From contig DAOLHH010000002.1 of assembly GCA_035329185.1 (NCBI GenBank), positions 1-47,882 of the forward strand: 47,882 nt of DNA, given 5' to 3'. Below, piece by piece: positions 5,449-47,882 of this stretch (its first letter is position 1; each line of letters opens with the position of its first letter). The notes under the pieces were generated by a model. The model ran no database searches and had not been told where the DNA came from. It worked only from the letters and a program-made list of their open reading frames with translations. The position numbers and the translations under genes are program-made. This stretch comes from Candidatus Saccharimonadota bacterium (GTDB taxonomy: Bacteria; Patescibacteriota; Saccharimonadia; Saccharimonadales; SZUA-47).

Positions 5449-6474
5449 ATGCAGACGCTATTCATATGTTTTCTTCTCGTGATTGCTGTAGTCAGTGTTT
5501 CGGTGCGTACCGGGTTACTTACCCTTAACCATTACCGGCTAAAGCAACTCGCTAAAGCGGGTGATAGACAAGCAAAGAATGTGTATCCACTGCATGCATT
5601 GCGCTATGAGCTCTATGTAGCCATGACCGTGCTCTATCTAGCAAGTGTAGCCACGCTCACTTTATTGTTTCGGATGGAGCTTGGAAGTATTCTCGCGGTC
5701 TGTATTGTCACGCTACTACTTGTAATTGTTGCCGAACTTTTACCGCTACTATATTTACGAAATAAGTCGATCCTTTTGCTATCTGTCTTGTCGCCGGCGC
5801 TTCGGAAGCTTGCCGGCCTTGTTGCACCGGTAACCAGACGAGTTGCACGTGTGATTGCTTCTGTTTTAGAGCGACAAGATAACGTACTCTATACGCGAGA
5901 ACAACTAATTGCACTGTTTGAAAATTCCCAAAAACATCATGAAAGTGATGTTTCTAAAGACGAATTACGAATGCTTCAAGGAGTTATGGAATTCGGTGAC
6001 AAATTGATACGTGATGTTATGACGCCGAGGCGTATGGTAAAACTTGTATCTCAAGATGCCGAAGTGGGCCCCTTATTTATGGATGAATTACATAAGTCAG
6101 GGCACTCACGATTTCCAGTAACAGTAGATAATAATCATCTGAATTTTGTTGGAACGCTCTACATGCGAGATCTTATCGGCCAAAAATCGTTGAAGAAAGT
6201 GCAGGATTTGATGAGTGAAGACGTTCGGTACGTACACGAAGAAGAAACGCTTGATCACGCACTTCGTGCTTTTTTGAAAACTCGTCACCACTTGTTTATC
6301 GTTGTTAATAACTTTGAGGAATTTGTCGGGGTACTTAGCATAGAAGATGTGCTGGAAGAAATTATTGGCACAGAGATTGTTGATGAATTCGATGCTCATG
6401 ATGATTTGCGAGCGGTAGCAGCTGGCATAGCAAACAAAGAGCGTGTGCGTCGAGAAAAAGACTCAAATAAGTAA
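5449..6474 (+). CDS. CNNM/CorB-type transporter (DUF21 membrane domain plus CBS pair)
   Basis: Four N-terminal TM helices followed by two CBS-like repeats (VMTPRRMV.., MSEDVRYV..IVVNNFEEFVGVLSIEDVLEEI). No C-terminal CorC/HlyC domain is visible. Confidence 0.8.
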   Translation: MQTLFICFLLVIAVVSVSVRTGLLTLNHYRLKQLAKAGDRQAKNVYPLHALRYELYVAMTVLYLASVATLTLLFRMELGSILAVCIVTLLLVIVAELLPLLYLRNKSILLLSVLSPALRKLAGLVAPVTRRVARVIASVLERQDNVLYTREQLIALFENSQKHHESDVSKDELRMLQGVMEFGDKLIRDVMTPRRMVKLVSQDAEVGPLFMDELHKSGHSRFPVTVDNNHLNFVGTLYMRDLIGQKSLKKVQDLMSEDVRYVHEEETLDHALRAFLKTRHHLFIVVNNFEEFVGVLSIEDVLEEIIGTEIVDEFDAHDDLRAVAAGIANKERVRREKDSNK

Positions 6475-8629: not shown

Positions 8630-10381
8630 ATGAATGATGATGAAAATAATTTTCAGATTGGCTCTCAGACGCCCCCGCCAAATGAAGGGGTCGTGCCCCG
8701 TCCAATAGACGCAGAGGTCGACGAGATTATAGTTGAAGAAGCGGATAAGTTAATGCGTGCCGAGGATCGGGCACGTGAGTTGCAATTTGCACCACCAAAG
8801 CGCAAACGAAGCTTGAAAGTGTGGCTAGGAGCTATTTGGACAGTCTGGTGGACTAATACAAGACTTCGAAATACAACACTCATAGGAATCTTTTTATTGA
8901 TTCTTGTAGCCGTTTTTGTTCCATACACGCGCTATGGGATACTCAACTCTGCTGGTGTGCGCGTCAGTGCCAGTACCGTTGTAGTAGATTCACAAAGCGG
9001 TAGACCACTAAAAAATATACCGGTCACTCTACAGGGCAAACAGCAACGGACTAATGATGATGGCTATGCTCATTTTGATGGGCTTAAACTTGGTTCAAGC
9101 CAACTTAAAATAGAAAAAAAAGGATTCGCACCGTATGAAAAGTCCATAACACTTGGGTGGGGGAGTAATCCATTAGATAATCAACGTATTCTCGCTACTG
9201 GCGCACGGTTTACTTTTACGCTAAAAGATTGGTTGAGCCAGTCAATTATCAAGGAGGGTGAAGCTTCAAGTGGTGAAGATGTAGGACAAGCTGATGATGA
9301 AGGTACAATTGAGCTCGTCGTCGGTGAAGTAGATGATGATGCTGACGTGATGATTACGCGTGAAGGGTATCGATCAGAATTGCGAAAACTCGGAAGTTTA
9401 AATGCTGACAATGAAGATATATTGATGGTCCCCGATAAAAAACACGCCTTTGTGAGCAATAGAAATGGTCAATATGACCTTTATGCAATCGACGCAGATG
9501 GACAGCAGGAAAAACTACTTTTAGAAGCAACTGGAAAAGAACGTGAAATTCCATATGTTGTCCCACACCCGACGAGGGATGTCATTGCTTATTTAAGCTC
9601 ACGAGATGGAGATACAAACACAGAAAAGTTTATTCTCGATGGGCTTTTTATCGTTACGACTAACGGCTCAGAAGTCTATAAAGTGACCCGATCTGAACAA
9701 ATCCAAGTCGTCGGTTGGTCGGGAAATAAACTTATCTTTGTGTCCGTGATCGAAGGGGTGAGTGCAGGAAACTCACAACGCAGTAAGTTAACAAGTTATG
9801 ATTTAGACACACGTAGTCGTACTGACCTTGCTACTTCTAACTATTTTAACGATGTGAAACTTATTGGAGATAAAGTTTATTATGCTGTTTCAAGCTATGC
9901 TGTACCTCGCGATCAAGCAAAATTATTTTCCATCAATGTTGATGGGTCAGATAAACGCACACTTCTCAGCGATCAAGTCTGGTCCATTGTAAGAGAAGAT
10001 TACGCGACAACGCTATTTGATACTGAAAAAAGTGAATGGTATGAACAATCTAACGGAGGAGATCTCCAAAAACTCGACGCTCAACCGGCACAGCACGTAC
10101 CACGCATATTCACAACTAATCGGACGAATACTTATGCATCATGGATTGATGTTCGAGACGGAAAAGGCGTCTTGCTATCACATGAAATTGAGAAAAATGT
10201 CGACACGGTAGTAGTGACCGAATCAGGCATTACTGATCCCGCATATTGGATAAGTGAATGGCAAATTATTTATAGAGTTAATACTTCGCAAGAAACTGCG
10301 GATTACGTCGTCGATATACGAGGCGGAGAACCCAGAAAAATCGTCGATGTTATTGGTAATCGTTCCCGTTATTTTTACTAG
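8630..10381 (+). CDS. Membrane-anchored protein with a carboxypeptidase-regulatory-like beta-sandwich and a TolB/PD40-like beta-propeller region
   Basis: Cytoplasmic N-terminus, one TM helix, and the segment VVVDSQSGRPLKNIPVTLQG..DDGYAHFDGL..G. Repeated NGQYDLY/SRDGDT-type blades follow. Confidence 0.5.
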   Translation: MNDDENNFQIGSQTPPPNEGVVPRPIDAEVDEIIVEEADKLMRAEDRARELQFAPPKRKRSLKVWLGAIWTVWWTNTRLRNTTLIGIFLLILVAVFVPYTRYGILNSAGVRVSASTVVVDSQSGRPLKNIPVTLQGKQQRTNDDGYAHFDGLKLGSSQLKIEKKGFAPYEKSITLGWGSNPLDNQRILATGARFTFTLKDWLSQSIIKEGEASSGEDVGQADDEGTIELVVGEVDDDADVMITREGYRSELRKLGSLNADNEDILMVPDKKHAFVSNRNGQYDLYAIDADGQQEKLLLEATGKEREIPYVVPHPTRDVIAYLSSRDGDTNTEKFILDGLFIVTTNGSEVYKVTRSEQIQVVGWSGNKLIFVSVIEGVSAGNSQRSKLTSYDLDTRSRTDLATSNYFNDVKLIGDKVYYAVSSYAVPRDQAKLFSINVDGSDKRTLLSDQVWSIVREDYATTLFDTEKSEWYEQSNGGDLQKLDAQPAQHVPRIFTTNRTNTYASWIDVRDGKGVLLSHEIEKNVDTVVVTESGITDPAYWISEWQIIYRVNTSQETADYVVDIRGGEPRKIVDVIGNRSRYFY

Positions 10382-41144: not shown

Positions 41145-41732
41145 CTAAAAATTGAACGTGCGTACGAAAGTATCGATAGTGTCGGTATACTTCAGCTCTC
41201 CACCTTCACCTGCGTAGTAGGTCACGCCTTTTCCTGAGTTATTTTTAAATTCATAGGTAAGGTTAAGCCCTCCACCATAATCTCCAATACTCTTCACAAC
41301 CTTATCGCCATTGATGTCCAACTCTTCACAGGTGTAATCGCTAATCGGCTTACTTTTCTCAATGTTCTCTATTTCTGCTTCAATCAAGCAAGCAATCGTT
41401 TCGTCTGCAGGCTCTGCTCTTGTATAAATAAGCATGCTATTTGAGCGATCATCACAATCAACAGCTTTGTCATCGTCTGGATAAGCAAGCATCATCTTTG
41501 AGTCTATAGAGTCGCAGTTCATTTCACTCCAGCCGTCTGGTAGTGTGTATGCTGATTTTTTCTCCGCCACTTCTGTTTTCGTTGTATCGTTGTTTTGCGT
41601 TGCTTCGCTCTTTGAGCTAGTGTTTTCATCGTCTTGGTTCGCGACATACCAGCCTGCTGCCCCCACGACGGCAACTATAAGAAGGAGCACTAATATCCCT
41701 GTTAATCCGAATCCGTTTTGCTTCATTTTCAT
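41145..41732 (-). CDS. Membrane-anchored protein with a prepilin-like leader that lacks Glu5
   Basis: MKMKQNG/FGLTGILVLLLIV..., followed by a Cys-containing acidic ectodomain. Confidence 0.5.
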   Translation of the reverse strand: MKMKQNGFGLTGILVLLLIVAVVGAAGWYVANQDDENTSSKSEATQNNDTTKTEVAEKKSAYTLPDGWSEMNCDSIDSKMMLAYPDDDKAVDCDDRSNSMLIYTRAEPADETIACLIEAEIENIEKSKPISDYTCEELDINGDKVVKSIGDYGGGLNLTYEFKNNSGKGVTYYAGEGGELKYTDTIDTFVRTFNF

Positions 41733-41839: not shown

Positions 41840-42532
41840 CTATTCTGAAATTCTTACAGAATTAATGATGTCATCAAATACTGGTTTGTATATATGATAA
41901 TCAATGCCAGATACGTTCTTTGCGGAGTAATAATCACCTTTGTACAGTGTCGTTTTTATAAGTACTCCATATTTTTTACCGAGAATACCCACCGTAAGTC
42001 GCTGTTCATTACTATCAGACCCAGTAGCACCATAGGCTGAATAATCAGCAATTTCATAAAATGCGGGCAAAGCGTTAATCTCATAGACAATATGCTCACT
42101 GTCGCCACCTCCTAATTCAAACAAAAAATCTTTAACCCAGTTGTATACGTCGGTATAGTTTTCTGCCTCAAAAGCATAGATGTCGATACTAAACTGATCA
42201 AAGTTTGTGTAGGTTTCACCTACTGGATTCAGTACGACGCAGTCCAATATATGAGCACTACTATATACATTTATGGTAGCCCCCTTCAACTTAGAACAAT
42301 CTTCCGCAACTTTAAAAGTGTCTGGTAGTTGAAACGAAATTTTCTCATCAAGAATAGTAAGAGTTTTTCCGTTTTGAATTCTGTTATTATCTTCTTGCTG
42401 AGTTGTTTGTAGCTCTTTATCGTATTCAATTTTCATTGTCACTATATTCCATGCCGCAACAGCCACTAGAGACAAAACTAGAACCACAAACAAAATTTCA
42501 AGCGTACCAAAGCCGGATTTAAGTTTTTTCAT
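41840..42532 (-). CDS. Type IV pilin-like (class III signal) protein
   Basis: MKKLKSG/FGTLEILFVVLVLSLVAV has Gly-1, Phe+1 and Glu+5. AGGGGGAA RBS. Confidence 0.55.
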   Translation of the reverse strand: MKKLKSGFGTLEILFVVLVLSLVAVAAWNIVTMKIEYDKELQTTQQEDNNRIQNGKTLTILDEKISFQLPDTFKVAEDCSKLKGATINVYSSAHILDCVVLNPVGETYTNFDQFSIDIYAFEAENYTDVYNWVKDFLFELGGGDSEHIVYEINALPAFYEIADYSAYGATGSDSNEQRLTVGILGKKYGVLIKTTLYKGDYYSAKNVSGIDYHIYKPVFDDIINSVRISE

Positions 42533-42670: not shown

Positions 42671-43054
42671 TTAATAATGAAGTAACGACCTAAGCCTACT
42701 TTTAAACGGGTGATTTAAGAAAATATGCAGATCAGAATCGGACTCGAGCAAATAGTCCACTACATGCCAGAATTCATTTATTTTTTCGTGCTTTAACCCT
42801 TCGGTTCGTGTTAATTTTTGTCCCGATAGCGAGTTTACGAATGAATTTGGCACATCTGTAAGCGTGCACGCAAGTTCTGATTGACCCACTACTTCACCAT
42901 ATCGGCAAGCGAAAGTTACATGGTCATTTTGGTCGTTTTCATCATCCCATGAACCTAAAATACAAGTAAAATAAACTTCTGGCTTGTTGTTGTGGCGGTG
43001 AGCTTCAAGAAAAGCGACTGTGAACGCCTCGCCCCTATCCAGAATAAACCTCAT
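42671..43054 (-). CDS. Hypothetical protein (127 aa), third gene of the divergent operon
   Basis: TGATGAATG junction with the upstream gene. No family recognised. Confidence 0.55.
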   Translation of the reverse strand: MRFILDRGEAFTVAFLEAHRHNNKPEVYFTCILGSWDDENDQNDHVTFACRYGEVVGQSELACTLTDVPNSFVNSLSGQKLTRTEGLKHEKINEFWHVVDYLLESDSDLHIFLNHPFKSRLRSLLHY

Positions 43055-43057
43055 TCA

Positions 43058-44041
43058 TCAAACTGTCATTAATTGATTGAATACCGCAACATTATCATCG
43101 AATAATTTCGCAAGATCTTGAGTTGGATTGCTTGCAACAAGTCTGCCATCAGCAACCCGAAGACCAGTTCTATGCCAGGCGCACTGGCTAGCGTAACTGT
43201 TAGTCAAAGTAAAACTACCTACAATCTGGCGCAATTCAGCAATCCTGCTCGGAGCTACTGGACCAGTAATAATAAAGTGAATCTGCCTTGTGAGTAGTCC
43301 TTTAAAAGCTCGCAATTCGTCGGCAAAAGTAGCCCAGTCCTTCGCTTTAAGTGTCTGTACATCCATTGCGATAATCTGAACGGCAACGTTTACATTCAAC
43401 CAATTAGCCCACATAACCAGGCTCTTTCGGCTGTACCAATAAATATGCGGAACAGTAGTTATACCCAGAGCTTGCATCTCTTCGTAGACAACTAGGCTAC
43501 GCTTCACATTAAATATCTTCTCCGGGTGGGGATGTATATCCCATATCGAGTAATTGATCGATGTCACCAGATCAAAACCTAATGCCGCTAATCGGCGTAA
43601 AACATTGCCTCGTTTTGGCCAGATATTCTCTATGAGTCGGTCTTTACCATAGGCAAGAAGTAATAGCTTCGTCTCTGCAGGCACACCCATACGCATATGC
43701 ACATCAGCTGGGGTCAAAAGTTTGTCACGCGACACGACCTCACCAAGATGAACACCAACCCAAGCAGGCCTAGTGTGGGCAAGTAGCTTACTGCTCCCCT
43801 TTTGAATCCCAGGCACATATACGGGCAGGCGTGGCAGTTGTTGTTCAACTGCCGTAACCGTATTAAGGTACGGCCCTTCAACCGATGCCATCTGAAACTG
43901 ATGATCTTCCGAATCTTCGGCAAGAGGCTGATATTCAACACTTGCCATCTCGTAGTTATTGCAATGACCATCTTCATCGTCAATAAAATCCATATATGGA
44001 CAAATCTCGCTTCGCACAGAGTCTAGCGTTAGCTGAGTCAT
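43058..44041 (-). CDS. Hypothetical protein (327 aa); the C-terminal ~230 aa resemble DUF4417 from memory, unverified
   Basis: ATGA overlap with the upstream gene. The segment LVTSINYSIWDIHPHPEKIFNVKRSLVVYEEMQALGITTVPHIYW resembles the DUF4417 core as I recall it. Acidic, Cys-containing N-terminus. Confidence 0.5.
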   Translation of the reverse strand: MTQLTLDSVRSEICPYMDFIDDEDGHCNNYEMASVEYQPLAEDSEDHQFQMASVEGPYLNTVTAVEQQLPRLPVYVPGIQKGSSKLLAHTRPAWVGVHLGEVVSRDKLLTPADVHMRMGVPAETKLLLLAYGKDRLIENIWPKRGNVLRRLAALGFDLVTSINYSIWDIHPHPEKIFNVKRSLVVYEEMQALGITTVPHIYWYSRKSLVMWANWLNVNVAVQIIAMDVQTLKAKDWATFADELRAFKGLLTRQIHFIITGPVAPSRIAELRQIVGSFTLTNSYASQCAWHRTGLRVADGRLVASNPTQDLAKLFDDNVAVFNQLMTV

Positions 44042-44439
44042 AGTTGACCCAGCCCTTGTACCGAAATTATCACGATACGTGTATCGGCACTGGTCACCAC
44101 GACTGAATCAATCGTTCCCTGGTAGACATATTTCTTGCGCATACAACGCAATATCTGAGTAACGTACTCGCCCTCGTACACGCCCAGGTGGGCACCATTA
44201 CCTGCCGTAATTATAAGTTCGCCCCTTATAGCACTAGGCATCAGGGTAATAGCTTGACCTGCATGGGCAGACATTGCACTAGCTCCATCGAGAACCACTT
44301 CTTCAGTGAAAGCGAATAAACAACCCGCCGCCATTTCTGGCGCCGGGCCCGAACCACCTCCAACTGCTACCGGATCACTACTGTACGACGGTTTGTGTCG
44401 CACCACCCCTGTTTGATTTGTACTACTACCTTTACCCAT
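44038..44439 (-). CDS. Hypothetical protein (133 aa), first gene of the divergent operon
   Basis: ATG 44439 lies 4 nt after GGAGGT (the track's TTG start at 44451 is inside the SD). Gly/Ser-rich N-terminus, then a beta-rich region. No family recognised. Confidence 0.55.
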   Translation of the reverse strand: MGKGSSTNQTGVVRHKPSYSSDPVAVGGGSGPAPEMAAGCLFAFTEEVVLDGASAMSAHAGQAITLMPSAIRGELIITAGNGAHLGVYEGEYVTQILRCMRKKYVYQGTIDSVVVTSADTRIVIISVQGLGQL

Positions 44440-44443
44440 TTTA

Positions 44444-44497
44444 ACCTCCAACGGTCAGTTATGTTATATTGGAGGTAGACGAAAACTCGTCGACCTC
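44444..44497 (-). promoter_or_regulatory. Alternative-hairpin translational control element (SD / anti-SD / anti-anti-SD)
   Basis: In the transcript, TTGGAGGT (44451-44444, contains the SD) is complementary to ACCTCCAA (44476-44469). That ACCTC is also the 3' arm of hairpin GAGGTCGACGA/TCGTCTACCTC (44497-44472). Confidence 0.55.
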
Positions 44498-44619
44498 AGA
44501 ATCGCTAGATTGCCTTGGCCTCTAAACTAAAGCAGCTAGCGATTTTTGTTTGCTGGGATTTGTGTCTGTGCTTGCGCCACTGTATTCCCTCACAGCCGGC
44601 TCTCAAGGAGTTACTACTG

Positions 44620-44648
44620 ATTATAAAGATTCAGATCAGTTCTGTCAA
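44620..44648 (-). promoter_or_regulatory. Consensus sigma70 promoter TTGACA-17 nt-TATAAT for the three-gene operon
   Basis: Plus strand shows tgtcaa at 44643-44648 and attata at 44620-44625, exactly 17 nt apart. Confidence 0.7.
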
Positions 44649-44740
44649 GATAATAATACACTAAAATTAAGCATAAGAGAAATAACTGTCATAAATGTTA
44701 AAAAATCTTTACATAAGTTATAAAAAATCAATAAAAACTA

Positions 44741-44769
44741 TTGACAGTTGCATAAAAAATTTATACACT
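44741..44769 (+). promoter_or_regulatory. Promoter TTGACA(44741-44746)-17 nt-TACACT(44764-44769) for the XRE-Panacea gene
   Basis: Read directly. AAAGGAG RBS at 44804-44810. Confidence 0.6.
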
Positions 44770-44814
44770 TGGATTATCAAATGAGTCTGGTGGAATTACA
44801 ACGAAAGGAGTCTT

Positions 44815-45507
44815 ATGATATCTGTTGCAGATAACATTCGTGAGCTACGGGAGGGAAAGGGCTTAAGCCAATCTGAGGTAGCTCAGATAATAAATCTAAG
44901 CAGGCCTACCTATAATGCTATTGAGACTGGTCGCCGTGAACCAACCATCAAAGAATTGAATGCGATTGCTGGCATCTTAGGAACAACTCTAGAGTCAATA
45001 CTATTTAATTCCCAGCAAACTGGCATTACTAACTCCAGATTAAATAAGTTCAAGCAGTTAATACTAAATTGCTTACAGTATGGTTCTGACCAGCATGATC
45101 AGCGAATTACTAAAACCAAATTAGCAAAGCTTGTTTATTTAGCTGACTTTGCACAGTTTCAACGTACAGGAGAGCCCATGACGGGGCTTAGTTATAGGGC
45201 TATTCAGCAAGGACCTGTTCCGGACGCATATTTCAGGATTATCGATGAGTTGTTTGAAAATGGATCAATCACTATTGAACAGCGTGGTACAGCGATGATG
45301 ATTCGTGCGAATGAATCTGCTCCTACTTCATCACTTTCGACAGGTGAACTCGATTTGATTAAAGAGGTTTGCGCAAAGTGGCAAGGTAAGTCAACTCAAG
45401 AAATTGTTGACTATACACATAATCAAGCTCCTTGGAAGGCTACAGAGGCAGGGGCTGTAATACCTTACGAGCTAATAACTCTTGAAAGTCCTGACAATAT
45501 CTTCTGA
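44815..45507 (+). CDS. XRE-family HTH fused to a DUF4065/Panacea (SocA/GepA-like) antitoxin-type domain
   Basis: HTH: IRELREGKGLSQSEVAQIINLSRPTYNAIETGRREPTIKEL. Panacea-like core: ITKTKLAKLVYLADFAQFQRTGEPMTGLSYRAIQQGPVPDAYF. Confidence 0.8.
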   Translation: MISVADNIRELREGKGLSQSEVAQIINLSRPTYNAIETGRREPTIKELNAIAGILGTTLESILFNSQQTGITNSRLNKFKQLILNCLQYGSDQHDQRITKTKLAKLVYLADFAQFQRTGEPMTGLSYRAIQQGPVPDAYFRIIDELFENGSITIEQRGTAMMIRANESAPTSSLSTGELDLIKEVCAKWQGKSTQEIVDYTHNQAPWKATEAGAVIPYELITLESPDNIF

Positions 45508-45707
45508 ACTGGTATTCTCCTTACTGTAAAATAGTTTAATATTTGACTAATCATTGTCTTAATACATTTAGTAAAGTTGGTTGGCTACAGCCTGCTATTC
45601 AGGAAGTCCATAGTTGCAAAGGCTGATATGCTAACACTTGCGACGGTCGTGCAAGGGAAAAGAGGTCGGACCTACGTAAGTATTACTTTGTGTCAGATAA
45701 TGATGTT

Positions 45708-45764
45708 GGCAGAACTCGACTATGAATGCTCACTCGGCAACGTGCTTTTCAAGCACGCTCGCTC
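45708..45764. repeat. Repeat element X, copy 1 (copy 2 at 46523-46581)
   Basis: Shared blocks ACTCGACTAT, ATGCTCACTCGGCAACGTGC and GCACGCTCG. The internal hairpin is GTGCTT-ttc-AAGCAC here and GTGCC-tag-GGCAC in copy 2. Confidence 0.7.
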
Positions 45765-45828
45765 AGCCCAAGGGGTATCGAATGATACCCAAGCAATGAT
45801 TCCTCAACATGCCACTGGCATGCCTCAG

Positions 45829-46410
45829 TTATCGAGAAAATAGTTCTTTTATCATCTCATAATCAGGACGCGCTACTTCACGCTCATCGTCAAAAGAAAT
45901 CTTATTATTCAGGTCTCTTTCGATTTTTTTTAAAACCCAATTTTTTAGCTCTTCCAAGCTTATAGTCTTGCCAAATGACCATGCCGCATAAATATAAAAA
46001 TCAGTCTGTAAATGTGCTAGCGAATCTGCTGTCGCAAGTATTAAACCTTCCTTGCTTTTAGGACGCTCGTCGCCATGACAACTGTGGTAGCGAATGGCAT
46101 CATCCACAACTAAGGCAATTTCTCCGTCAGTATAGCCAACCTCTAGCATCAGTTCCTTCGCAATAGCAAGACTCCTTTCTTCATGACCAGCGATTGCGCG
46201 CGCCATCTCGATATCCGCTATATCGTGCAATAAAGCTGCAATTTCACAAAGCTCTTCACTAGCACCGTACTTTTCAGCTAACTCATGAGCGCTCTTGGCT
46301 ACCAAAAGCACATGATTCTTGTATAACCAGTCGCTCCACTCGTCACGGTGAGGATTATTGCTTTGGTATAGTTCCTGAACTTTAGTGCGCACTAGCTCCA
46401 ATTTATTCAT
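45829..46410 (-). CDS. HD-domain metal-dependent phosphohydrolase
   Basis: H..(30)..LLHDIADIE...RYH..HG...D. ATG 46410 lies 6 nt after the extended -10 TGGTATGAT; the track's TTG start is 46449. Confidence 0.7.
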   Translation of the reverse strand: MNKLELVRTKVQELYQSNNPHRDEWSDWLYKNHVLLVAKSAHELAEKYGASEELCEIAALLHDIADIEMARAIAGHEERSLAIAKELMLEVGYTDGEIALVVDDAIRYHSCHGDERPKSKEGLILATADSLAHLQTDFYIYAAWSFGKTISLEELKNWVLKKIERDLNNKISFDDEREVARPDYEMIKELFSR

Positions 46411-46522
46411 GGCATAATCATACCACTTGTGTACTGGGTAAAATCCCAAGACACAAAAAATAGTTCCATTTCTGGAAGCATTTCTGATCTGGCAATCTGA
46501 ATTGATTGCGGGTCCGCCAGCT

Positions 46523-46581
46523 GGCGGAAGGACTCGACTATCTGATGCTCACTCGGCAACGTGCCTAGGGCACGCTCGTTC
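46523..46581. repeat. Repeat element X, copy 2, preceded by the 16-nt perfect palindrome TCCGCCAGCTGGCGGA (46513-46528)
   Basis: See copy 1; aligned by eye. Confidence 0.7.
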
Positions 46582-46585
46582 GGGT

Positions 46586-46659
46586 AGCGGGGGCACTCCA
46601 ACGCACGATGTTAGACTAGCTGGGAGCTATTCCAACATCTAACTAAATTCTGTACAAAT
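46586..46659. repeat. Repeat element Y, copy 1 (74 nt)
   Basis: Identical to 47654-47727 except one base (T at 46611, G at 47679). Weaker similarity continues for about 40 nt (ATTTGAC.AATT.CGAACC...GGCTCG.AGTC). Confidence 0.9.
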
Positions 46660-46768
46660 CAGTTGATTTGACTAATTTCGAACCTTTTTGGCTCGAGTCA
46701 TGACTTCTTGGTTGCTAAGGTAGTTTTAGAACAAACTATTAGCTGTGTTGAGCGGGTGGAAACTTGAA

Positions 46769-47443
46769 TTAATTTAGTTTCACTGACTTGGAGATAATTT
46801 CACTAAAGTTCTCAATAGCTTTTCTGTCGTATGTTGATTGCTTAGAACATTCGTTACCACTACAAACGTCTGGAAGTACTACTTTAACCATATTTACACC
46901 AGACACGAAGAGCAAAGTAGTAGCAGAAAACGGACCATCTCCAACGGTATAGTCGTAAACAACTACACCTGAGTCACTAGTCCTGCTGAATAAATCAAAC
47001 TCATCACCAACTTTTGTGCCGTCAGGGAATCGTCCAAGCTTTGTGATCGTCCAATTTTCATTCAATGTACTGTACGATATTGTCGGACCAAATCCACCTC
47101 CAAATTCGTATCCATCTGCACTGTGCGTAATCGCAGGGTGCCAGTTATCATTTAAATCATCAATGTTTTTCCATTCAGTAGGATATACAAAACTGAATTC
47201 ATCACCTTGATACAGTTCATAGCCATCAGGGGTATTCGCAATCTGATCCATGGTCTGCGGATTATCATTAGCTTGCACTTTGCTGTCATGCTGTGGGGTC
47301 TCCTTTTGTTGAGTCTCGACATCTTGATTCTGCGACCACACATAATAACCTGCAAACCCAAGTACAGGGACGATCAGTGCTATTAGCAACCCCTCTACTA
47401 ACGTAAATCCTTTTTGACCGTTCATTTGGTGCTTCTTGATCAT
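46769..47443 (-). CDS. Type IV pilin-like (class III signal) protein
   Basis: MIKKHQMNGQKG/FTLVEGLLIALIV has Gly-1, Phe+1 and Glu+5. The track's 62-aa N-terminal extension has no support. ATG 47425 is also possible. Confidence 0.6.
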   Translation of the reverse strand: MIKKHQMNGQKGFTLVEGLLIALIVPVLGFAGYYVWSQNQDVETQQKETPQHDSKVQANDNPQTMDQIANTPDGYELYQGDEFSFVYPTEWKNIDDLNDNWHPAITHSADGYEFGGGFGPTISYSTLNENWTITKLGRFPDGTKVGDEFDLFSRTSDSGVVVYDYTVGDGPFSATTLLFVSGVNMVKVVLPDVCSGNECSKQSTYDRKAIENFSEIISKSVKLN

Positions 47444-47653
47444 CTTATTGTATGTTAGCACAAACAAAGTAAGTCTCGAACCTGAATTACAGAGGTAGAA
47501 ATACGTAAACCAAAAAGAGATTGGCATGAAAGTTTGATTAATATCTGTAATTCTTACTTGGTAGCGTTGGCAGGAAATATGGTAATTTGACGGGCTTTCG
47601 CGTGAGCAAGCTCCCAAGGTCCCGTACAAATTAGCGAATCTGCGACCTTTTCA

Positions 47654-47727
47654 AGCGGGGGCACTCCAACGCACGATGGTAGACTAGCTGGGAGCTATTC
47701 CAACATCTAACTAAATTCTGTACAAAT
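47654..47727. repeat. Repeat element Y, copy 2 (74 nt)
   Basis: See copy 1. Confidence 0.9.
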
Positions 47728-47792
47728 ATGAAATTTGACAGAATTCGAACCTCCCGCTGTGCGGGACGGCTCGGAGTCGTGCACCAGATGCC

Positions 47793-47828: not shown

Positions 47829-47882
47829 TGGTAGCGGGGGCAGGACTCGAACCTGCGACCTTGTGGTTATGAGCCACACGAG
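47829..47882 (-). tRNA. tRNA with anticodon CAT, 3' part only (truncated by the window end), CCA encoded
   Basis: The reverse complement reads ..TGTGG-CTCATAA-CCACA-AGGTC-GCAGG-TTCGAGT-CCTGC-CCCCGCT-A-CCA. Confidence 0.85.

Follow-up and report, generated by a model that had tools for sequence, protein, structure and literature searches.

What does a Panacea-domain gene govern when no toxin gene accompanies it on its own strand? The question is raised by positions 42671-45507 of contig DAOLHH010000002.1 (assembly GCA_035329185.1), a contig of 47,882 nt from a Candidatus Saccharibacteria metagenome-assembled genome (MAG) that was analysed in full length and is referred to here as the window. 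At this locus, a gene encoding an XRE-type helix-turn-helix (HTH) fused to a Panacea/DUF4065 domain faces, across a divergent region of 375 bp between start codons, a minus-strand operon for proteins of 133, 327 and 127 amino acids (aa). The initial annotation of this DNA, made from its letters alone, had proposed a candidate toxin-antitoxin (TA) or defence-type module of four genes in which the divergent operon is the toxic or effector part. Sequence comparison across loci, structure prediction and analogy argue for a reading on which our judgement is evenly balanced: the module would be a compact (2.45 kb), horizontally shuffled unit in which a sensor-repressor is combined with a silenced effector cassette of two genes acting on DNA. 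The module is probably to be seen as a new effector system triggered by stress or by phage.

The recurring unit and its regulators

Profile searches with Pfam bore out the domain call on the plus-strand product, which matched HTH_3 (E = 9.6e-16) and SocA_Panacea (PF13274; E = 7.8e-20, 72.3 bits against a gathering score of 25.7, with the profile covered in full length from 1 to 113) and belongs by this profile match to the Panacea/DUF4065 (PanA) family; its HTH also matched the PADLOC models HTH_VI, control-protein and capH. The three minus-strand genes lie where they had been placed and are tightly joined, genes 1 and 2 by an ATGA overlap and genes 2 and 3 by TGA-TGA-ATG (all coordinates are given in Table 1).

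The HTH-Panacea gene, the 133-aa gene and the gene for the 327-aa DUF4417-like protein were found together in six genomic contexts, namely the window and the loci L001, L004, L005, L006 and L008/9, which we class as Saccharibacteria-type loci, with L021 and L025-L031 as more distant relatives. In all six the unit is 2,364-2,468 nt long and homology ends at both stop codons. Outside the window, it consists of a 229-230-aa HTH-Panacea gene (orthologues at 48-88% identity) divergent from a small gene and a gene for a DUF4417-like protein of 326-331 aa. Neighbouring genes vary from locus to locus, for instance GroES/EL and PGI in L006 and Ldh_2 and EamA in L001. The proteins are rare, with 11 (327-aa), 4 (133-aa) and 3 (127-aa) clusters at 90% identity among 5.8 billion, and a scan of species-representative genomes from GTDB recovered a single locus. 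At 36-42% identity, a two-gene core persists in L021 (labelled as an uncultured Gammaproteobacteria MAG) and in the metagenome loci L025-L031, where a 127-142-aa protein beginning with MG[KR]G is encoded directly upstream of the DUF4417-like protein.

The four-gene arrangement as annotated stood in part. The divergent operon is indeed the sole conserved partner of the Panacea gene, but the recurring unit has three genes, and the partner set comprises two genes rather than three, the 127-aa gene being absent from all other modules compared. Homologues of the 127-aa protein (P0017 and P0018; 153 and 152 aa, 62% and 58% identical) are encoded by stand-alone genes in unrelated neighbourhoods without the module, and carry about 26 additional N-terminal residues, including a CPxC motif, that are missing in the window copy. 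We therefore rejected this gene as a module member and regard it as a truncated local passenger, which is co-translated here because the cassette abuts it. At the same 3' border, L001 (about 9000-9110) and L004 (about 6290-6380) have in common an element of about 60 nt (GGTTCCAWTYCGWTTGCACGTACTCAACCA...) after the DUF4417 stop codon, with otherwise different flanks; the window, in which the 127-aa gene adjoins the cassette directly, lacks this element, and it may represent either a small RNA or the 3' terminus that the cassette transcript originally had. In L005 (8164-8403) and L024 (852-1091), a 79-aa DUF2188-like gene lies directly 3' of the DUF4417-like gene; DUF2188 was also noted by Lau et al. 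(bioRxiv 10.1101/2022.04.27.489752) in other putative defence operons that are associated with CapH/CapP.

On the regulator's own strand, the lack of a credible partner that had been reported was confirmed. Downstream lie just short or unconserved open reading frames (ORFs) over tRNA-like repeat fragments, and no same-strand neighbour is conserved across loci; an 88-aa ORF starting with TTG, considered as a same-strand toxin 3' of the Panacea gene, overlies these fragments and was discarded. A role of HTH-Panacea as control protein of a restriction-modification (R-M) system was likewise rejected as an explanation of the module, as the arrangement of regulator, about 68 nt, and then same-strand C5 DNA methyltransferase and NspV-like restriction genes is limited to one sub-lineage (L004 1572-3744, L008 1457-3629, L009 1365-3537), in which the regulator might additionally serve as a control protein. 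On its other side, the same sub-lineage has a Mrr_cat gene (L008/9) or Fic and DUF4325 genes (L004), a defence-island-like setting.

In the more distant loci, the divergent position is held by other regulators: genes resembling CapP and CapH in L021, L029 and L031, LexA in L028, and in L025 and L026 homologous small proteins that had no match in Pfam, NCBIfam or PADLOC and may represent a fourth, undescribed regulator type for the cassette. These sister cassettes face CapH/CapP-like, LexA or other regulators, so that HTH-Panacea takes up the position of a repressor that senses DNA damage and guards a defence or effector operon. Within the Saccharibacteria group, the regulator tree was ((window, L001), (L004, L005, L009)) and the cassette tree ((window, L004, L009), L001, L005). 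As the two trees are incongruent and similarity of the operator region tracks the regulator grouping across loci (alignment), regulator plus operator and cassette plus leader behave as two blocks that recombine separately. A large serine recombinase gene was observed 3 kb from the cassette in L021.

The comparative pattern bears directly on whether the locus is a classical PanAT type II TA system, in which Panacea would neutralise the cassette toxin or toxins by direct binding and the HTH would only autoregulate, an explanation that we consider unlikely. It would fit the genuine Panacea domain, the constant company of regulator and cassette in the Saccharibacteria group, and the R-M, Mrr, Fic or DUF2188 genes beside some loci; moreover, an HTH stands at the N-terminus of 343 known PanAs, and the toxins with which PanAs are paired fall into dozens of unrelated kinds (Kurata et al. 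2022, PMC8832971; Ernits et al. 2023, PMC10440598). PanAT loci were, however, defined by a shared, co-directional operon of two or three genes in which at most 100 nt separate PanA from its partner, and roughly one in two DUF4065 proteins lies outside TA-like loci (Kurata et al. 2022, PMC8832971). Regulator and cassette are conserved together, as PanAT pairs are, but they lie on opposite strands with 375 nt between their start codons, which places the module outside the PanAT locus class. Saccharibacteria HTH-PanAs in the published dataset have overlapping downstream toxins (T14), unlike the window, and DUF4417 was not found in the PanT supplementary tables that were searched, one of which was covered in part. 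The two sides also show no co-divergence, since DUF4417 proteins of only 60-80% identity occur together with PanAs of 91-94% identity, and the same cassette pairs with CapH/CapP-like or LexA partners acting on transcription. A sensor-repressor role of Panacea fits this pattern at least as well as toxin neutralisation, and Panacea and ImmA have been proposed as parallel hub domains, with Panacea perhaps primarily sensory (Ernits et al. 2023, PMC10440598).

The divergent region and the leader RNA

The perfect TTGACA-17-TATAAT promoter that had been noted in front of the three genes is the sole one in the 47.9-kb window, against 0.02 expected by chance, and its TTGACA box is kept across five loci (alignment). 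Its -35 box is 167 nt from the ATG of the Panacea gene, not about 120 bp as first given. Since the first operon gene begins about 180 nt 3' of the -10 box, the transcript would have a long leader. Towards the regulator, a promoter-like site has a GTGTAT box overlapping its -10 and an AT palindrome between its hexamers, and its -10/GTGTATAAA segment is invariant in the inter-locus alignment. The inverted repeat between the two promoters, a candidate HTH operator, is located upstream of the operon -35, like the CapH site reported by Lau et al. (bioRxiv 10.1101/2022.04.27.489752).

Conservation of the leader exceeds that of the promoter region (alignment). The leader is present in nine loci with enzymes 39-87% identical, including L025-L027 at 39-42% identity to the window enzyme, and the hairpins P1 and P2 formed in every copy upon folding (n = 9). 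Compensatory changes were found at 7 of the 18 modelled pairs, the paired cells amounted to 89.5% as compared with 33-45% in slid controls, and the covariation score was reached by none of 500 shuffles. The CCUCC of the P2 3' strand alternatively pairs with the GGAGG of the Shine-Dalgarno (SD) sequence, as is visible in the sequence and in the minimum-free-energy fold of L008; judged from this complementarity, the leader can sequester the ribosome-binding site (RBS), which would add a translational gate. In Rfam 15, the leader had no match at the gathering threshold, and at E-values up to 10 the interval 44380-44830 gave two noise hits only. A covariance model (CM) search for further copies found none beyond the nine loci, the leader being absent from the CapH/CapP and LexA variants, and it is a candidate new cis-regulatory RNA. 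In L029 (4407-4610) and L031 (1135-1338), a conserved 67-aa ORF (MAKTYKSGQIVPKSSQ...) stands between the CapH-like and small cassette genes and replaces the structured leader.

The description of the operon as strongly promoted and heavily gated was thus well founded, in view of the window-unique perfect promoter and the leader with its alternative anti-SD/SD pairing. Heavy gating suggests a harmful product, which is also what neutralisation of a cassette toxin by Panacea would entail.

The cassette proteins

The likeness of the 327-aa product to DUF4417 that the initial annotation had suggested agrees with a borderline Pfam match to PF14386 of 28.7 bits (E = 1.1e-6), which is 0.2 bits under the gathering score of 28.9. 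An identical protein in NCBI is named 'DUF4417 domain-containing', the precomputed Pfam v12 matches agree, and 37 of 61 sampled relatives matched the DUF4417 model (best 4.9e-11). A profile search with the protein collected 1,304 clusters at E-values of 1e-3 or better.

The AlphaFold2 (AF2) model of the protein (predicted local distance difference test, pLDDT, 84.6; predicted TM-score, pTM, 0.86) is an eight-stranded beta/alpha barrel after a poorly ordered N-terminus. In a Foldseek search against the PDB, all 50 of the 50 top matches listed were tRNA-guanine transglycosylase (TGT; E-values from 2e-6 to 3e-5, TM 0.49-0.57), so that the predicted model has the TGT-like TIM barrel of the TGT/DpdA superfamily, whereas homology to this superfamily was not detected by sequence or profile. 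Matches in BFVD included phage proteins with TGT or queuine ribosyltransferase annotations, as well as one ParB/Sulfiredoxin protein. Across 61 diverse members of the family, P77, D134, S165 and G260 are invariant and C14, C27, P73, E138, W141, N178, P198, W214 and Q229 are conserved in at least 90%. In the model, D134, S165, P198, Q229 and G260 are placed at or just past the C-terminal ends of barrel strands, and we infer that they line the usual catalytic face.

Most DUF4417 relatives have three to five or more Cys in the N-terminal segment, many in the form CxxC-x5-C-x8-C and some as CX3CX2C, and the partner-bearing subfamily retains just two, C14 and C27. Cys-rich N-termini before the barrel were also observed in relatives from plasmids and elsewhere, at L035 (2634-3656) and L033 (5743-6858) and in P0145, some with a radical-SAM-like CX3CX2C (CGRDCNSC, CGLSCNTC), and the motifs raise the possibility of an iron-sulfur cluster in the wider family.

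The 133-aa protein begins with an almost invariant, basic and Gly-rich tail (residues 1-33, starting with MG[KR]G) that is predicted to be disordered, followed by a HIRAN-like beta domain (residues 34-133; AF2 pLDDT 76 overall and about 90 for residues 40-130). The top 15 Foldseek matches in the PDB were the HLTF HIRAN domain and lp_0118 (E-values from 6e-3 to 3.5e-2, probability about 1.0, TM 0.42-0.57). Pfam HIRAN gave no match, and from the predicted model the likeness is placed at the level of the fold only. Homologues are 128-134 aa long in Saccharibacteria-type loci, where some gene callers picked a shorter start of 98-99 aa. C40 and C99 are invariant in the family alignment, and from their sequences we hypothesise a metal site shared between these two Cys and C14/C27 of the enzyme.

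Another explanation is that the 133-aa/DUF4417 pair is itself a two-gene TA system of small upstream antitoxin and larger toxin, with HTH-Panacea added as a regulatory third component. In all loci compared the small gene stands directly upstream, coupled by an ATGA overlap or a spacing of 0-1 nt, the pair is kept whatever the type of regulator, and the small protein has a conserved segment of predicted disorder, all of which a toxin with its antitoxin would share. We nevertheless find this improbable: no DNA-binding domain of an antitoxin can be recognised in the small protein, whose ordered part is similar to the nucleic-acid-binding HIRAN fold, and the invariant Cys pair of the small protein, together with the reduced Cys pair of the enzyme, suggests an obligate structural partnership and not inhibition.

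Relatives outside the subfamily give an indication of the substrate. DUF4417 relatives at 22-31% identity are carried by 104 plasmids. On Streptomyces linear plasmids, the DUF4417 gene overlaps a gene for a ParB N-terminal domain (ParB-N) in a replication/transfer operon, and on pCW3-like plasmids of C. perfringens the gene order is dcm, a 57-aa ORF, DUF4417 and amidoligase; in addition, ParB-DUF4417 fusions were reported as enriched in phages and prophages in a 2025 preprint. Because the plasmid relatives adjoin ParB-N, Dcm and amidoligase genes, analogy points to DNA as the likely substrate of DUF4417.

The same contexts would suit a non-toxic function in damage-inducible repair, tolerance or DNA modification, with the HIRAN-like protein finding 3' ends or stalled forks and the barrel swapping or removing damaged bases, or marking DNA for self-protection or anti-restriction, as part of an SOS-like regulon. 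In support of such a function, which we think rather unlikely, LexA and IrrE/CapP-type regulators are classical DNA-damage switches, both predicted folds (HIRAN-like and TGT/DpdA-like) are compatible with it, the C5-methylase gene adjoins the module in L004 and L008/9 much as dcm and amidoligase or ParB-N adjoin DUF4417 on plasmids, and L006 and L025 have housekeeping neighbourhoods. The distribution is, however, patchy and rare, with varied insertion sites and 11 close clusters among the 5.8 billion, which is more in keeping with a mobile accessory function than with core repair. Two tight silencing layers on a consensus promoter would be unusual for a harmless repair enzyme, no genes for base-precursor synthesis accompany the cassette, and CapH/CapP-associated operons are mostly defence systems.

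Proposed mechanism, setting and comparison with known systems

The reading that we put forward, a sensor-repressor with a silenced DNA-directed cassette, would operate as follows. HTH-Panacea would bind operators in the divergent region and hold the very strong promoter off, with the Panacea domain as the signal-sensing (or partner-binding) part, a task that falls in sister loci to the CapP peptidase or the LexA S24 domain. Transcription of the operon would follow a trigger, for example DNA damage or infection, and the leader RNA would then decide whether the RBS is free (P2 formed) or sequestered (CCUCC:GGAGG). The two translationally coupled products would assemble into a complex in which the conserved tail of the 133-aa protein and the Cys segment at the N-terminus of the enzyme fold together, the HIRAN-like subunit binds DNA ends or single-stranded DNA (ssDNA), and the TGT-fold barrel acts on DNA bases by excision, exchange or modification, to the harm of the cell or of an invader. 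The 127-aa gene would be co-expressed here by an accident of position.

Several observations weigh against this reading. Alignment with hhalign of the 61-sequence profile to E. coli Tgt gave a probability of 0.1, hidden Markov model (HMM) searches of the PDB with the 327-aa family matched no TGT and no other solved structure, and generic matches among TIM barrels are possible. For the 133-aa protein, profile and HMM searches against solved structures were negative, as was hhalign against an approximate sequence of the HLTF HIRAN domain. PADLOC returned no matches for the effector proteins; neither it nor PHROGs nor NCBIfam matched the 133-aa or the 127-aa protein, and the 327-aa protein had weak matches only in PHROGs. 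No subfamily relatives of the 327-aa protein were found in IMG/VR, and INPHARED gave none with the window protein and one weak partial match with the L021 protein. Several loci lie among housekeeping genes, for instance GroES/EL, PGI and TsaD. The LexA case (L028) is one 4.3-kb contig, the leader analysis comprises nine sequences of which five are close relatives, and the sensory function of Panacea is a published hypothesis and not an established function. Toxicity, DNA binding, catalysis and repression are putative, being derived from sequences and models.

A more specific version, which we advance tentatively and would not expect to hold in every part, is that of an undescribed DNA-directed effector in which the DUF4417 enzyme is completed or targeted by the HIRAN-like subunit, possibly through a shared Cys4 metal site, and excises or exchanges bases at DNA ends or in ssDNA once freed from interchangeable damage-sensing repressors. 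Panacea would then be the sensor of a transcriptional repressor and not a toxin-binding antitoxin, with the riboswitch-like leader as a second checkpoint. Were this to hold, DUF4417, a family of unassigned function that is frequent in phages, conjugative plasmids and bacteria of the candidate phyla radiation (CPR), would receive its first function and Panacea a new role. For DUF4417, the module offers a testable context, since its partner is of a DNA-binding type, its regulators are of the damage type and its fold has a link to base exchange. With Panacea in the regulatory position of CapP, ImmA and LexA, the module also bears on the published idea of Panacea as mainly a sensor. In Saccharibacteria, which are reduced episymbionts and for which few defence or stress systems have been described, a dedicated, mobile and tightly gated effector would be informative. 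A literature search for a HIRAN-like plus DUF4417 cassette, its leader RNA and a DUF4417 function found no description.

Three partly overlapping repeat blocks separate the module from a tRNA gene that is truncated at the end of the contig. One pair of repeats is 74 nt long and 99% identical, and on the minus strand the blocks contain pieces like tRNA 3' ends (T-arm-like GGTTCGA/GTCGAGTCC motifs and CCA-like ends). They had no match in Rfam and resemble the att-type remnants that successive integrations at the tRNA would leave. Elsewhere in the window, an AdoCbl-II (cobalamin) riboswitch aptamer was matched at 104-154 on the plus strand (38.3 bits against a gathering score of 36.5), and around the module several ORFs, at 41840-42532, 41145-41732 and 46769-47629, all on the minus strand, have type IV pilin-like N-termini (for example KSGFGTLEIL and QKGFTLVEGL, plus a hydrophobic helix).

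Table 1. Positions of the module genes, regulatory elements and surrounding features in the window, and regulators facing the cassette in related loci
Feature	Position	Strand	Description and basis
HTH-Panacea regulator gene	44815..45507	+	230 aa; XRE-type HTH residues 8-60, Panacea/DUF4065 residues 103-208; Pfam
133-aa protein gene	44038..44439	-	ATG after GGAGG
327-aa divergent DUF4417 protein gene	43058..44041	-	N-terminal Cys pair C14, C27, then (beta/alpha) barrel
Conserved 327-aa residues D134, E138, S165, N178, Q229	strand C-termini		AF2 model and conservation
127-aa ORF	42671..43054	-	3-nt gap to cassette, without own RBS
Operon promoter, perfect TTGACA-17-TATAAT	44620..44648	-	promoter scan
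Regulator promoter-like site, TTGACA-17-TACACT	44741..44769	+	promoter scan, 10/12 match; putative function
AT palindrome ATAAAAAATTTAT	44752-44764		between hexamers of regulator promoter-like site
Inverted repeat ATGTAA-N8-TTACAT, candidate HTH operator	44695..44714		between the two promoters; kept in five close loci
GTGTAT boxes, candidate operators	44656-44661, 44763-44768		in the divergent region
5' leader RNA	44440..44612	-	about 173 nt; alignment, folding, CM
Leader P1 hairpin	44501-44543	-	folding
Leader P2 hairpin	44472-44497	-	folding
Anti-SD CCUCCAA	44469-44475	-	overlaps P2 3' strand
SD UUGGAGG	44445-44451	-	sequence
Leader CM match	44430-44553	-	covariance model
Repeat blocks (three, partly overlapping)	45640-45830, 46460-46700, 47590-47770		between module and end-cut tRNA gene
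tRNA 3' part	47832-47882	-	cut by contig end
Divergent regulator, L021, L029			HTH_3 + Peptidase_M78; best PADLOC CapP (2e-31, 3e-30) and CapH
Divergent regulator, L031			CapH/CapP-like by ORF sequence resemblance only
Divergent regulator, L028			LexA (LexA_DNA_bind + Peptidase_S24); Pfam
Divergent gene, L025	4035-4370	-	homologous to L026 gene; 88-111-aa proteins (...YTEEARRERFKRIAEKRTNRILN...)
Divergent gene, L026	3766-4032	-	homologous to L025 gene

Compared with known systems, the module shares with PanA/PanT pairs, including SocAB, a genuine Panacea domain with an N-terminal HTH, partners of obscure function, a mobile unit and swapping across lineages; it differs in that its partner is divergent, is a two-protein HIRAN-like plus DUF4417 cassette, and does not co-diverge with the regulator. 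CapH/CapP genes have been described as lying upstream of the operon, in opposite orientation to it and sharing its promoter region, and the operons so associated are for the most part established or presumed defence systems (Lau et al., bioRxiv 10.1101/2022.04.27.489752); we include in this class the related ImmR/ImmA, DdrO/IrrE and RosmerTA RmrA. The same layout, an opposite-strand HTH repressor gene upstream and a shared promoter region, was found in the window, L021, L029 and L031, and L021 and L029 carry CapH/CapP-like genes in the regulator position, as does L031 when judged from its ORFs. In the window, HTH-fused Panacea stands in place of the peptidase, a Peptidase_M78/CapP gene being found in sister loci only, and the effector genes do not form a known defence system; unlike for CapH/CapP, we know of no ssDNA-sensing or cleavage mechanism for Panacea.

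For the 133-aa protein, the HIRAN domain (HLTF; lp_0118) is the best and consistent structural match of residues 34-133, with a Foldseek E-value that is marginal (6e-3) and not accompanied by a Pfam hit or profile similarity. With DpdA/DpdB 7-deazaguanine DNA modification, the cassette has in common a predicted TGT-like barrel and, in its family, repeated fusion or adjacency of DUF4417 to ParB-N. DpdA (TGT-like) partners DpdB (ParB-like), and phage enzymes annotated as TGT or queuine tRNA-ribosyltransferase are often DpdA-type DNA transglycosylases. In contrast to DpdA/DpdB and Tgt, the 327-aa protein is without sequence or profile similarity to Tgt, has no preQ0 synthesis genes nearby and has a HIRAN-like rather than a ParB-like partner. 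The phage and plasmid proteins of Pfam DUF4417 probably belong to the same family as the 327-aa protein, within which the window subfamily is a divergent CPR branch, set apart by two N-terminal Cys instead of the usual three to five or more and by its dedicated MG[KR]G partner.

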